Shown one piece after another: positions 1,616 to 52,619 of a DNA stretch of 64,000 nucleotides. The stretch comes from a virus: IMG/VR virus record IMGVR_UViG_3300023174_003073, positions 96,001-160,000 of that record; one strand, given 5' to 3'. The notes under the pieces are model-generated. The model did not search any database, had not been told where the DNA came from, and was given only the letters and a program-made list of their open reading frames with translations. The stretch's first letter is position 1. Every line of letters begins with the position of its first letter. A program made the position numbers and the translations under genes.

Positions 1616-1644
1616 TCCTGAGTAATAGAGTATTTATCTCAGAA
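1616..1644 (-). promoter_or_regulatory. late promoter GATAAATA (1631-1638) inside an RBS-occluding hairpin TTCTGAG/CTCAGGA
   Basis: Inverted repeat read directly; its 3' arm contains the AGGA RBS. Confidence 0.6.
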
Positions 1645-1649
1645 AGGAT

Positions 1650-1731
1650 ATTGCTCACTTTTGAGTCCACGGTAGCGAATCGCTTTCTCAGCCCAGCAGC
1701 CGGGCCACACGGTCCTAAGGTAGGTGTGTTC
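1650..1731 (-). ncRNA. candidate structured RNA element (family not recognised, strand uncertain)
   Basis: About 57% GC island in an AT-rich genome. Stems CACAC/GTGTG (inner CCT/AGG), GCCCGG/CTGGGC, AGCG/CGCT and TGAG/CTCA. Confidence 0.5.
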
Positions 1732-1815
1732 TTAGACGGGACTATATGGATTACGGGGTCTATCCGTTCCATCGTCCTCAGGGTATACAGGGTAATCGTT
1801 TGGGTTACATAACAT
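1732..1815 (-). CDS. unannotated 27-aa peptide MLCNPNDYPVYPEDDGTDRPRNPYSPV
   Basis: ATG at 1815 preceded by AGGA; overlaps the stop of the upstream gene; TAA at 1732-1734. Confidence 0.55.
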   Translation of the reverse strand: MLCNPNDYPVYPEDDGTDRPRNPYSPV

Positions 1816-2827
1816 AAATATTTCCTACACATCCTCTTAAAACTTCAGCAAAGTATTCAGTTAAATCATCACCGATACCCTGTGATTCATATTGTCTTGT
1901 ATCTTCGTCACGAAACTCTGATTTTAGATTAAGATACTTACTTGGGTTACCCCATGCTTGACGACCATAACCTAAGTTAGTTGGTAATGGGTTTAATGTG
2001 ATTGTTCCTGTACCTAAATATTGTGCAAATAATTCATATAAGAATTCATATGGACGTTTGATTTCATTACTGCGACTGCTACGCTGTGTTCCAATAGCAT
2101 TGAATAATGCATTATATTCTGGTGTTAGATTCCAAGACATACCGCTTCGTGCAGGACGACCATATTGGTCTTTTGCTACTTTACCATAACAACGTTCTAA
2201 CACTTGATTAACTGTGTTAAAGAAATATTGTTCTGCTTCGGGCCATGCACCTGATTTACTTGCACCAACATTACGATGACCTGCTTGAATAGCATGACCA
2301 AATCTATGTGCCATGATCCATGGTGTCATCATTACTTTGCTATCACCTTTATTACCCACAAACACTACAGTGATAGCATCTTCACTACCATCAATAATTT
2401 GTTGTGCTTCTTTACCAAATACTTGTTGAAGTACTTCAGCCTTCATAGGTCCATATTCACTGTAACGTCCTGTACCAGGAATGTTACTAAAGAACAATCT
2501 AAAATCGTAAGGGGTTTTCTCTAAGAATCTTTGTGTCTTTAGTTGATTAGTTGGATGAGGTACTAATCTTTTATCAACACCTCTGAATGGACCTGGCTTT
2601 TCAAAATCACCCATAGGAGTGAACTGTTTAAGAGCCATCTCATCAACAGTATCAGTTTGTATTGATTCTGAAATTGACTGCACATTGTCTTTTCCATATA
2701 ACTTAACTAACAACTGTCTTGCTTGACCCTGAGACTCAGCATGAATTATTGTTTTGATTGAGGAGCCATTAACTTTTACAGTTACTTTGAACTTTTTTAA
2801 TGGAGATGAGACTTCATCGAGGCGCAT
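1805..2827 (-). CDS. putative head-packaged protein with a zincin-like domain (HRxxH variant)
   Basis: MRLDE N-terminus; small N-domain ending ISE/VDE; WIMAHRFGHAI plus downstream ELFAQY. Confidence 0.5.
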   Translation of the reverse strand: MRLDEVSSPLKKFKVTVKVNGSSIKTIIHAESQGQARQLLVKLYGKDNVQSISESIQTDTVDEMALKQFTPMGDFEKPGPFRGVDKRLVPHPTNQLKTQRFLEKTPYDFRLFFSNIPGTGRYSEYGPMKAEVLQQVFGKEAQQIIDGSEDAITVVFVGNKGDSKVMMTPWIMAHRFGHAIQAGHRNVGASKSGAWPEAEQYFFNTVNQVLERCYGKVAKDQYGRPARSGMSWNLTPEYNALFNAIGTQRSSRSNEIKRPYEFLYELFAQYLGTGTITLNPLPTNLGYGRQAWGNPSKYLNLKSEFRDEDTRQYESQGIGDDLTEYFAEVLRGCVGNIYVM

Positions 2828-2835
2828 TGGGTATT

Positions 2836-3276
2836 TTACTCACGTTCTTTTTTAAGAATGCTACGAACCATCCAAGCCTTCTTACCATAGAAGTCTTGTA
2901 GTTCTGCCATGTAGTTAGCAATACCTTGTTGACGTTCTTGTGTTGCAATGTCAAACATACCAACAACAAGTTCAACCATCTTTTCAATATCTTGTTGAGT
3001 TTCCATGAACATTAATTCAGCACGTGGAATTTTTGTTTGGTCTTGAATGATTGATAGTTCTGCATAACGTGTTAAACTTGCAGGCGCATAACTATCCAAT
3101 ACTCTGATATACTCAGCAATCTTATCTACTGTTTCATATGTATCATTGTATAACGAATCATAAAATGCGTGATATTGAGGGAAATTACTTCCTTCAATAT
3201 TCCAATGAAAGTTGCGTGATTTCAATGAAAATGCTTCTGTTGAAGCTAATAATACTTTTAAGTTGTCTGCTAACAT
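2836..3276 (-). CDS. dps: Dps / ferritin-like DNA protection protein
   Basis: NFHWNIEGSNFPQYH and DKIAEYIR Dps signatures. Start moved to MLADNLK (ATG 3276, RBS AAGGA). Confidence 0.9.
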   Translation of the reverse strand: MLADNLKVLLASTEAFSLKSRNFHWNIEGSNFPQYHAFYDSLYNDTYETVDKIAEYIRVLDSYAPASLTRYAELSIIQDQTKIPRAELMFMETQQDIEKMVELVVGMFDIATQERQQGIANYMAELQDFYGKKAWMVRSILKKERE

Positions 3277-3289
3277 GTTAATCCTTTTT

Positions 3290-50594: not shown

Positions 50595-50605
50595 TTTATT
50601 TTTCC

Positions 50606-51625
50606 TTAAGCGTTAGTTATAGATACAGAGACACCGTTTACTGGGGCACCAAATGTCCATGGAACACTTGAATCTGTAGCAAACTGAGTACCACCGTTAG
50701 ATGCTTTGCGAACAACTGTGCAACGATGACCACCTAGTTTCTTAACCCAATATTCCCCACCGGCACTGTCAAAAGCAGTTAAGTCCATTTCACCGGCTGC
50801 GTTTGCAACACCATCAGTTACTAGTGAACAAGTCATAACACCGTCTGCTGTTTTAACCTTGTAACGGCGTGCACCAACTTGACGAATAATATCAGCTACT
50901 TGGCGACTTCCACCTGTTACATATGCGTAAGGGATGATAGCATTTTCTTGATTACCGGCACTGTAAGGAATACCGTTGTCTGTAGTCAATACGATTGTAC
51001 CTGCTGGTACTGTACCATTTGTTGTACCTGGCTTAGTAAATGTAAATGTTTCATTACCTGTATAACCAGATCCTTTTTCAGTAATAGTTACTGTAGATTC
51101 TTTAACACGGAATGCAATGTCAACTAAGAATGTTGACGCTGTACCTGATCCTGCAATTTTAGTTAAAGTAATACCAACTGTATCTTTTGGAATGTCTGCA
51201 AGTGCTAGAGCATCACCCCGAGCCGCACCGGTTGCTATTACTGAGAACACAGCATTAGCACCTGACAAGTCAGTAACTTTAGCAATCATTCCTGGTACAC
51301 TTGCCACACCAAATGTGTCGCCAACTGCTAAGTTAGTTTTGCCTGCACCAGTTCCTACGCTTTCAACTTCAAATTGTGCAGTGTAAGTTGCTTGTACACC
51401 GCCTGGAATTGTCGGAGCTGGCAGTGCTGTTAGTGCTGTCAACACTTGAACGTTACTGTTGCCTTGGAATGAACCAAGTGTTGACCAGTTGATACTAGCA
51501 ATGCCTTCGCCACCAATTCTGTCATCACTATAATTTTGACTGTTTGATTGATTACCAGTAGTCTGGTCACCGCCGGTACCAATGTTACGGTTACCAAAAT
51601 ATTTTTTGTTTAGATTAGCTGCCAT
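50606..51625 (-). CDS. virion structural protein, paralog A
   Basis: LNKKYFGNRNIGTGGDQTTG...DDRIGGEG and TTDNGIPYSAGNQENAI...IIRQVGARR shared with its neighbour. Confidence 0.7.
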   Translation of the reverse strand: MAANLNKKYFGNRNIGTGGDQTTGNQSNSQNYSDDRIGGEGIASINWSTLGSFQGNSNVQVLTALTALPAPTIPGGVQATYTAQFEVESVGTGAGKTNLAVGDTFGVASVPGMIAKVTDLSGANAVFSVIATGAARGDALALADIPKDTVGITLTKIAGSGTASTFLVDIAFRVKESTVTITEKGSGYTGNETFTFTKPGTTNGTVPAGTIVLTTDNGIPYSAGNQENAIIPYAYVTGGSRQVADIIRQVGARRYKVKTADGVMTCSLVTDGVANAAGEMDLTAFDSAGGEYWVKKLGGHRCTVVRKASNGGTQFATDSSVPWTFGAPVNGVSVSITNA

Positions 51626-51650
51626 TTTATTTTTCCTTTATATTATGGGC

Positions 51651-51702
51651 GTTCTAGGCCTACGCAGTGGCTTACTGCGTAAACTCTCATTCAAGAGCGA
51701 AC
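51651..51702 (-). ncRNA. structured 5' leader (three-way junction) downstream of the late promoter at 51707-51714
   Basis: GTTC/GAAC closing stem; hairpins GCTCT/AGAGT and TACGCAGT/ACTGCGTA. Confidence 0.55.
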
Positions 51703-51726
51703 ATTGTATTTATCTTTTTTTGGGTA

Positions 51727-52587
51727 TTAGAAGGAGGTATCGTCTAATAAGACTCTAGTCCAAATGTCAGTTACATTATCAACGTAGTTACTTCTGCAAT
51801 AATACATATACATATTGTCAAATGCTATTGTTCCTACTGTGTCTCCGGCAGCACCATAGCTATGTGTAGGTGGAGTTCCACCGGCAGAGATTAACATCTT
51901 ACCTACTGTTGCAGTACCTGATACAGTCAAGCCAGTTAATGTACCCAAACTAGTAATGTTAGCCTGTGCATTAGAAGTTACTGTACCTGCTTTAGTGGCA
52001 GTTGTTGCAGTACCTGAACTATTTGCATACGTAGCATTTGCTATATTATTAGGAGTACCCCAACTTAATGCTGTGCCGTTAGTAGTTAAGAACTGTCCAT
52101 TGTGTGTAGATTGTGCGGGTAATGTTGTACCGCCACCTGATGATGTAGTCCAAGTTAAGTTACCTTGACCATCTGTTGAAAGTAACCCACCGCTCATCCC
52201 ACCTAGTATTGAAATATTGGCTGCATCACCTAATTTTATTTTAATGTTTGCAGTTGGTCCAACATTTGCGCCAGTCCAATTAACTACACTATTAGCAACT
52301 GATGCATTGCCATCAAATACTAAAATTTGACCTGTTCTCGGATCATTTAAACTTACAAATGTATTGCTTGATCCTGCAATTTGTGTAAAAGGTATTTCTG
52401 AAACTTCAGTAAGAATTTCAGTCTGAGTTGTCATTTCATTCTCAGCAACAGGAACTAATACAGGATCGTTTCCTATATAGACTTTTTGTGCGTCTGATGC
52501 AAATCCAATTTCCCCCGTGTCTAATTGAGGCAAATCTACATTTGCACCTACTCTGTGAATTATTTTGCTTATTTGTACGATGGCCAT
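51727..52587 (-). CDS. short fibre protein with an Mtd_N-like N-terminus
   Basis: IVQISKIIHR.G...LPQL..GEIGF..D..KVYIG; QANITSLGTL repeat. Confidence 0.65.
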   Translation of the reverse strand: MAIVQISKIIHRVGANVDLPQLDTGEIGFASDAQKVYIGNDPVLVPVAENEMTTQTEILTEVSEIPFTQIAGSSNTFVSLNDPRTGQILVFDGNASVANSVVNWTGANVGPTANIKIKLGDAANISILGGMSGGLLSTDGQGNLTWTTSSGGGTTLPAQSTHNGQFLTTNGTALSWGTPNNIANATYANSSGTATTATKAGTVTSNAQANITSLGTLTGLTVSGTATVGKMLISAGGTPPTHSYGAAGDTVGTIAFDNMYMYYCRSNYVDNVTDIWTRVLLDDTSF

Positions 52588-52619
52588 AGTTTAATCTTCG
52601 GTTGATTAAACTATTTATC
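52586..52619 (-). promoter_or_regulatory. late promoter GATAAATA overlapping an 11-bp hairpin ATAGTTTAATC/GATTAAACTAT that covers the start codon
   Basis: Inverted repeat at 52586-52596 / 52604-52614. Confidence 0.7.

Follow-up and report, generated by a model that had tools for sequence, protein, structure and literature searches.

We analyzed a 64,000-nt stretch of viral DNA (the window), bases 96001-160000 of the 170,986-bp IMG/VR record IMGVR_UViG_3300023174_003073, for hairpins that combine a late promoter with the translation start of the gene behind it. The record has a CheckV completeness of 43%. The window has a GC content of 37% and carries most of its genes on the minus strand, among them genes for tail sheath, tail tube, a gp13-like adaptor, MazG, a dNMP kinase, an exonuclease, DnaJ and a ClpA-like protein. 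When 10 kb of the window was compared with cultured phages by megablast, the single match was a 113-nt stretch of mazG, indicating that no annotated close relative exists among them. Long relatives sharing these genes (G001-G005) measure 260-525 kb, and four of them, of 350-525 kb, are rated complete, suggesting a clade of very large T4-like phages.

The first-pass annotation had described one layout at eight sites, with a late promoter motif, NTAAATA, in the 5' arm or loop of a hairpin and the Shine-Dalgarno sequence (SD) or the ATG in the 3' arm, and had proposed that it acts as a translational gate. All eight layouts were present with these elements, on the minus strand and directly before ATGs. 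The stems were also unrelated, as it had stated, sharing no sequence beyond the promoter. The promoter consensus in this phage is [GT]ATAAATA or GTAAATA, and it lies 16-25 nt from the ATG at every site. We refer to the sites by number, and to sites 2 to 8 as gates for short:

Site 1, 1616-1644, minus: CTGAG...CTCAG flanking GATAAATA (1638-1631), before ATG 1607; unsupported as a gate.
Gate 2, 5967-5999, minus: GATAAATA (5999-5992) followed by stem ATAAGATA/TATCTTAT, with GGAA in the loop; the 3' arm ends in ATG 5969 of gene 4635-5969.
Gate 3, 10724-10765, minus: two-tier hairpin with TGTAAATA (10753-10746) in the inner stem and loop and the SD buried by the outer stem TGGTCCTC/GAGGACCA; ATG 10722 of gene 9781-10722 (phrog_1574, unknown function).
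Gate 4, 11795-11839 (stem 11801-11827), minus: stem TAAATACTC/GAGTATTTA, the promoter GATAAATA (11827-11820) being the 5' arm itself and GGAG lying in the 3' arm; ATG 11798 of a 55-amino-acid gene, 11631-11798.
Gate 5, 35848-35874, minus: TATAAATA (35874-35867) overlapping the 5' arm ATATCTAC, loop GAG; the 3' arm GTAGATAT takes in the AT of ATG 35850 of gene 35485-35850.
Gate 6, 43329-43370 (hairpin 43336-43366), minus: 11-12 bp hairpin whose 5' arm and loop are spanned by the promoter GATAAATA (43358-43351), with the SD GGAGAA in the 3' arm; ATG 43332 of the gp13-like neck/adaptor gene 42562-43332.
Gate 7, 52586-52619, minus: GATAAATA (52619-52612) continuing into the 5' arm TAGTTTAATC; the 3' arm GATTAAACTA adjoins ATG 52587 of gene 51727-52587, which has a weak Mtd_N-like N-terminus.
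Gate 8, 35017-35066 (site 35020-35049), minus: AATAAATA (35049-35042) inside a hairpin that buries TTTAGGAC; an alternative stem TATACTGT/ACAATATA adjoins ATG 35020 of gene 34535-35020.

The gate 6 gene was assigned by PHROG to head-tail adaptor Ad2; Pfam and PHROGs left the function of most gated genes unassigned.

Promoter hairpins exceed shuffled controls

To obtain a gate index, we computed the energy needed to open positions -13 to +3 in read-through RNA, modelled as starting 20 nt before the promoter, and subtracted the value for late RNA, modelled as starting 6 nt after TAAATA. Each leader was compared with 100 shuffles in which the promoter 8-mer and the ATG were held fixed. Separately, the minimum free energy (MFE) of the region -45 to +5 was expressed as a z-score against 200 dinucleotide shuffles. 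A simple count of MFE pairs touching the SD did not discriminate, as shuffles gave at least five such pairs about half the time, and the energy-based index was therefore retained. Genome-wide statistics were based on our own call of 266 genes, which yielded 29 late-promoter leaders with TAAATA at -36 to -18.

Nine of these 29 leaders had an index in the top 5% of their shuffles, against 1.5 expected (binomial P 8e-6), and an index of at least 6 kcal/mol was reached by 8/29 late-promoter leaders but only 20/218 other leaders (Fisher p 0.008). The index distribution was two-humped, with about nine leaders at 5-16.5 kcal/mol; the remaining 20/29 had no excess structure over their own shuffles, several of them falling below these. 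Six late leaders that lack a hairpin gave z-scores of +1.05 to -1.75. Stems were thus commoner than in shuffled sequence, and the excess was confined to a subset of the late leaders.

Six of the sites (3 to 8) had z-scores of -2.3 to -7.5. At gate 6 the MFE was -18.6 kcal/mol (z -7.5, 0/200 shuffles), and opening cost 18.8 kcal/mol in read-through RNA vs 2.4 kcal/mol in late RNA. The MFE was -18.1 at gate 3 (z -4.5, 0/200), -12 at gate 4 (z -3.7, 0/200; index 6.1, shuffle fraction 0.06) and -10.3 at gate 7 (z -2.8, 3/200; index 8.7, 0/100). Gates 5 and 8 gave z -2.5 (6/200; index 7.0, 0/100) and z -2.3 (5/200; index 8.8, shuffle fraction 0.01), respectively. The overall fold of gate 2 was weak (z -1.0, 30/200), yet its index of 6.9 was matched by 0/100 shuffles. 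The shuffle fraction of the index was 0.00-0.01 for sites 2, 3, 5, 6, 7 and 8. Site 1 (z -1.2, 28/200; index 3.0, shuffle fraction 0.31) is indistinguishable from chance.

For gates 2 to 8 the opening energy in read-through RNA was 7.4-18.8 kcal/mol. In late RNA it was at most 3 kcal/mol (about 0.4-3) at every gated site for any start 4-9 nt after TAAATA, so that the result does not depend on the start site assumed.

One further leader in the window is a marginal candidate:

30907-30959, minus: TCTTACT upstream of GATAAATA (30937-30930) pairs with AGGTAGGA, which is the SD; ATG 30910 of a 1922-amino-acid gene; z -1.75 (11/200), index 5.4, shuffle fraction 0.03.

Outside the window, three more late-promoter leaders of the full record (G000:C1), for starts at 8671 (plus), 4514 (minus) and 53825 (minus), had indices of 8.6, 7.2 and 5.0 with shuffle fractions of 0.02, 0.06 and 0.04.

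Hairpins in orthologous leaders

Orthologous loci were fetched from IMG/VR with the proteins of the gated genes as queries, and distinct leaders were counted. For gate 6, 43/47 distinct promoter-bearing leaders had an index of at least 6 kcal/mol, a level reached by 5% of their shuffles. In an alignment of gate 6 leaders (A1), 87% of the cells of the 11-bp helix were paired, against 30-52% when the partners were slid, and there were 54 double-change cells vs 20 in shuffles (0/500). The arms varied widely while remaining complementary, as in GTTCTCCAGAT/ATCTGGAGAAC, TTCCCCAGAT/ATCTGGGGAA, AACTCCTGAT/ATCAGGAGTT and GTTTCCTGAT/ATCAGGAAAC. G.U cells outnumbered A.C cells in this helix by 31 to 12 (the cells are not independent), which leans slightly towards pairing on the sense RNA.

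Gate 3 behaved similarly: 44/50 distinct orthologous leaders were gated, by 38 different arm pairs. MAFFT alignment followed by RNAalifold predicted zero pairs on the gate 3 leaders, in which the offset of the 5' arm from the promoter varies from lineage to lineage. We instead built the gate 3 alignment (A5) from a covariance model, with a stricter cut-off against reverse-strand matches to near-palindromes. In it 81% of the cells were paired vs at most 55% when slid, and 16 double-change cells were counted vs 9.2 in shuffles (0/500). The promoter was constant throughout, with GATAAATA invariant in 48/48 gate 6 leaders and TAAATA in 49/49 gate 3 leaders, at a mean column identity of 61-66%.

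The other gates had fewer distinct relatives or a more mixed record. All five orthologous leaders of gate 7 were gated, by three different, mutually compensating stems, and 3/5 of those of gate 2, again with differing stems. Gate 4 had a single distinct relative, in which the stem was kept and an A-to-G change produced a G.U pair. The covariation evidence is accordingly thin for gates 4 and 7, with one and five distinct relatives. At gate 8, 12/19 leadered orthologues were gated; their stems covary, as in ACTGCT/AGCAGT and ACTACTAT/ATAGTAGT. At gate 5, 11/14 orthologous leaders with a leadered promoter were gated; in another 35 distinct leaders the 70 nt next to the ATG contained no TAAATA motif. 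Site 1 was not conserved, its promoter occurring in 1/39 distinct orthologous leaders, and that one with a mismatch in the stem. As a control we used the leader of gene 33901-34509, whose promoter was kept in 42/42 orthologues: its median index was 0.5, equal to that of shuffles, and 0/42 reached 6 kcal/mol. Since the hairpins are kept in orthologues of the gated genes and this control leader has none, gating is gene-specific and maintained by selection.

Taken together, the hairpins exist in excess of chance, belong to particular genes and are kept by compensatory change around an invariant promoter motif. Because both the shuffle and the covariation comparisons were favourable, the best reading of gates 2 to 8 is that they are promoter-in-hairpin translational gates of the T4 type, to which we give a probability of roughly 0.7. 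The translational gate proposed by the first-pass annotation thus stands for seven of its eight sites and not for site 1. A read-through transcript would contain both arms of the hairpin, the 3' arm being the SD and/or the AUG, and binding of the 30S subunit would be disfavoured because opening costs about 7-19 kcal/mol. Transcription from the late promoter of the gene itself (NATAAATA), which sits in the 5' arm or loop, would give an RNA that begins a few nucleotides after the motif and lacks the 5' arm. The ribosome-binding site would then open at about 0.4-3 kcal/mol, and translation of each gated gene would be tied to the firing of its own late promoter. In this scheme we infer the late start sites from T4 geometry, together with read-through from upstream.

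Predicted sources of read-through and competing explanations

Read-through transcripts would come from two kinds of upstream unit. The first-pass annotation had placed several sites behind sigma70-driven operons, and this was found at gates 6, 7 and 4, with no terminator-like site between promoter and gate in any of the three. A generic sigma70 scan was barely above shuffles (75 vs 63 in one stretch, 73 vs 76 in the other); the promoters used here are only 12/12 matches and one match bearing a TG:

45760-45788, minus: sigma70-type promoter, 12/12 match (TTGACA-17-TATAAT), heading the unit that runs into gate 6.
53320-53348, minus: sigma70-type promoter, 12/12 match (TTGACA-17-TATAAT), 8 nt before the ATG of the exonuclease gene 52625-53311 (PHROG), which gate 7 directly follows.
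15628-15656, minus: sigma70-type promoter, 10/12 match (TTGACT-17-TATACT) with upstream TG, heading DnaJ 14808-15620, ClpA-like 12501-14783 and 11831-12535, a unit that runs into gate 4.
41709-41735, minus: terminator-like hairpin with a 10-bp stem, 4 GC pairs and a T run.

The unit behind the first promoter consists of 44581-45735, a small open reading frame, MazG 43962-44396 (PHROG) and 43375-43965. On the minus strand from this promoter, the first terminator-like site is 41735-41709, beyond gate 6, and it would end a transcript of MazG, the gp13-like gene and the dNMP kinase. The kinase gene (41857-42546, PHROG) is early-type and lies between the gated gp13-like gene and this terminator. 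An early transcript must apparently cross the late gp13-like gene to reach it, which is the situation that the T4 gate solves. In the third unit, DnaJ was identified by its DnaJ and DnaJ_C domains in Pfam and the ClpA-like protein as an ATP-dependent protease by PHROG.

At gates 6, 7 and 4 read-through would thus start from the sigma70-type MazG, exonuclease and DnaJ-ClpA promoters, and at gates 2, 5 and 8 from upstream late promoters. The proposal that the hairpins insulate interleaved early and late genes would fit gates 4, 6 and 7, and probably gate 3, and does not extend to gates 2, 5 and 8.

Several points weigh against reading these leaders as translational gates. The key step, differential translation of the two RNAs, is one that we infer. 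The involvement of the SD is no independent evidence, because, with only about 20 nt from promoter to ATG, a hairpin placed between the two is bound to overlap it. Sense and antisense strands folded about equally well in a comparison of MFE strand asymmetry, so that energy alone is no proof of action in the mRNA. The genes preceding gates 2, 5 and 8 are late ones, of tail-fibre-like (6025-8829, upstream of gate 2) and tail-tube type, a mismatch with the early-versus-late rationale; there the hairpin is better read as possibly uncoupling the output of the gene from a strong upstream late unit. The genes downstream of gate 7 (50606-51625 and 49377-50594) are ungated, so that gating the first gene would not suffice to keep the late block as a whole silent on early read-through RNA. 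Finally, a search with T4 gp55 found no homologue in the window's own record, which CheckV rates 43% complete; the same query matched an open reading frame of about 300 amino acids in 5/5 related records of 260-525 kb, although this match is weak (E about 1e-5, 26-33% identity).

The geometric argument for SD overlap also opens the way to a different role in RNA. The hairpins could be 3'-end barriers that stabilize the processed upstream cistron, or pause or attenuation signals, with the overlap of the SD as a by-product. Several of them do lie no more than 30-45 nt from where the upstream gene ends, gates 2, 5 and 8 follow highly expressed late tail genes, and plain terminators stand directly before ATGs in other leaders of this genome. 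However, no T run follows the stems of gates 3 to 7, which makes a terminator role unlikely, and as short helices (8-12 bp), several of them of low stability (-6 to -10 kcal/mol), the stems would be poor exonuclease barriers. Moreover, the promoter motif is always inside the helix or at its 5' edge, the 3' arm tracks the SD or ATG across orthologues with differing stems, and the identical layout was shown to gate translation in T4 (PMC3014915). We consider this explanation unlikely.

The equal folding of both strands raises the further question of whether the inverted repeats act in DNA, as a cruciform, a single-strand hairpin or a dimeric protein site that tunes the late promoter. The promoter does lie inside the repeat, and T4 late transcription is coupled to replication, which makes single-stranded DNA available (PMC2988020). 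A common protein operator is excluded by the unrelated stem sequences. The bias of the gate 6 helix towards G.U over A.C, with the reservation on independent cells given above, and the single change at gate 4, to G.U, also speak against a role in DNA. Late promoters evidently do without such repeats: 20/29 leadered ones have no excess structure, and the control promoter is kept in 42/42 orthologues without one. Action in DNA therefore seems to us still less probable than another role in RNA.

That AT-rich, partly self-complementary late leaders form such hairpins by chance is highly improbable: site 1, and site 2 by MFE, do fall within the shuffle range, and shuffled leaders often form at least five pairs involving the SD, but the large excess over shuffles, the compensatory conservation and the chance-level scores given by the same method for the control leader and for the marine cyanomyovirus P-RSM4 (see below) refute chance for gates 3 to 8 and leave it standing only for site 1.

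Relation to T4 gates and to leaderless starts

The layout of gates 2 to 8 corresponds to a known device. In T4, e, soc, 49 and I-TevI have their SD and/or AUG sequestered on long transcripts, and late promoters within the 5' strand of the structure yield transcripts that are open, which for lysozyme makes a 100-fold difference; the same device was described for I-TevII, I-TevIII, segB and Aeh1 mobE, and 39, 25 and 26 are also listed (PMC3014915 section 29; PMC2988022 section 12). The T4 genes gated in this way are late genes on polycistronic RNAs that also bear early and middle genes (PMC3014915; PMC2988022). The T4 late promoter itself is an 8-bp TATA box at the -10 position (PMC2988020).

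We ran the same pipeline on T4 (NC_000866), where 11/27 leaders had an index of at least 6 kcal/mol and 13/27 lay beyond 95% of their shuffles. The top matches were I-TevII, e, I-TevI, 49, 51, soc, segB, inh, segE, 4 and 24; I-TevII, e, I-TevI, 49, soc and segB are what we take these leaders to be from their coordinates and protein lengths, whereas 51, inh, segE, 4 and 24 were confirmed from the T4 annotation. The run recovered every published gate with a motif in range. This benchmark indicates that the measure finds published gates and that T4 uses the device at least as often as the present phage. The suggestion that it is used more widely here than in T4 was therefore not borne out (11-13/27 leaders in T4 vs 8-9/29 here), and the literature already lists the genes named above.

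In the T4 run, genes 51, inh/segE, 4/53, 24 and 9 had indices of 5.3-9.4 and are outside the lists of PMC3014915 and PMC2988022. The inh/segE and 4/53 hairpins are a geometric by-product, because in these divergent pairs back-to-back late promoters and SDs form a palindrome. In P-RSM4 only 2-3/25 leaders scored, which is near chance, and the best one was a terminator. Not every T4-like phage, then, uses the device, and an AT-rich late leader is not in itself enough to inflate the score.

The leaders described here resemble the T4 e/soc/49/I-TevI class in having a late promoter of the TATAAATA type in or next to the 5' strand and the SD or AUG as the 3' strand, with indices of 6-16 kcal/mol compared with 9-15 for the published T4 gates. 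They differ in belonging to an uncultured freshwater T4-like clade with complete relatives of 350-525 kb, known from sequence alone, and in the genes concerned, which encode a gp13-like neck protein and virion or unknown proteins and include no lysozyme or homing endonuclease. Three of them, moreover, lie behind late rather than early genes. Short intergenic units of promoter plus stem-loop, the PeSL cassettes, reportedly occur in RB49-type phages, where they are said to be repeated and related in sequence, to carry early promoters and to mediate recombination. The stems found here, in contrast, show no sequence relationship to one another and go with late promoters and the SD. Outside the close T-even group, the mobE gene of Aeromonas phage Aeh1 likewise has a hairpin that sequesters the ribosome-binding site beside a late promoter (Gibb and Edgell, cited in PMC3014915, PMC2988022); that case concerns one homing-endonuclease gene, whereas here about a quarter to a third of the leadered late promoters are involved, in front of structural-module genes.

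Gates 2 to 8 would therefore extend a known mechanism by a group of new members, which belong to a distant clade and are documented by covariation. The mechanism itself is textbook T4 biology and will not surprise a specialist. In T4 the gate was shown experimentally for a handful of T-even genes. Here, compensatory changes across hundreds of metagenomic relatives indicate that selection preserves the device in a remote clade of uncultured, very large T4-like phages from freshwater, where it precedes structural-module genes, that of the neck protein among them. The gate index is a simple, benchmarked measure for any T4-like genome, being high in T4, intermediate in the present clade and at chance in the marine cyanomyovirus, and the gates may aid annotation by marking true start codons, late transcription units and late genes embedded in early operons.

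A second kind of predicted late start was found in the same genome. The spacing from TAAATA to ATG was bimodal, with 25 genes at 16-25 nt, 15 genes at 4-5 nt and none at 8-12 nt. TAAATA lies 4-5 nt before the ATG at 9713 and 55390 (minus) and 41550 and 45837 (plus) in the window, and at 15-18 genes genome-wide. This leaves no room for an SD and implies leaderless late mRNAs. A motif-anchored scan of open reading frames of at least 60 codons, which is independent of the gene call, found 12 spacers of 4 nt and 6 of 5 nt here, compared with 0 and 3 in T4 and 1 and 0 in P-RSM4.

Both kinds of start occur among orthologues of the gate 8 gene (loci L169-L248). The spacer was 18-24 nt in 19 distinct leaders, most of them gated, and 4-7 nt in 27, with no intermediates, so that the leaderless type replaces the gated leader in 27/48 distinct leaders. 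The ATG-ACN start was conserved in both types. The split follows protein identity, suggesting possibly as few as one switch. Leaderless starts, a general bacterial phenomenon, likewise make translation depend on the start of the transcript, with no need for a hairpin. We therefore offer, tentatively and with more doubt than confidence, a clade-wide rule in which a gene's own promoter licenses its translation by either of two interchangeable ways, a hairpin gate or a leaderless start. Such a rule would insulate late genes from early read-through and, at gates 2, 5 and 8, uncouple low-copy late proteins from strong upstream late transcripts.

Licensing of this kind may also apply to promoters of the sigma70 type. 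Those of the exonuclease (53311-53348) and DnaJ (15620-15656), both on the minus strand, end 7-8 nt before the ATG, and these early-type mRNAs are therefore predicted to be leaderless or nearly so. Outside the window, at about 92116-92165 and 81920-81960 of the record (G000:C1, minus), sigma70-type promoters TTGACT-16-TATAAT and TTTACA-17-TATAAT place their -10 box in a hairpin loop, with the 3' arm extending to the SD and opening energies of 15.8 and 8.9 kcal/mol, the same gate logic with an early-type promoter.

Two other late leaders in the window, both on the minus strand, have unusual arrangements. Directly after the gated, highly conserved gene 9781-10722, a strong terminator-like hairpin (9733-9761; 12 bp, 6 GC pairs, T run) is followed by TATAAATA with leaderless-type spacing for gene 8847-9713. 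About 85 nt separate GATAAATA from the ATG of gene 50606-51625, in an unusually long leader (51626-51726) containing an 8-bp hairpin, TACGCAGT/ACTGCGTA, that makes no contact with the SD.

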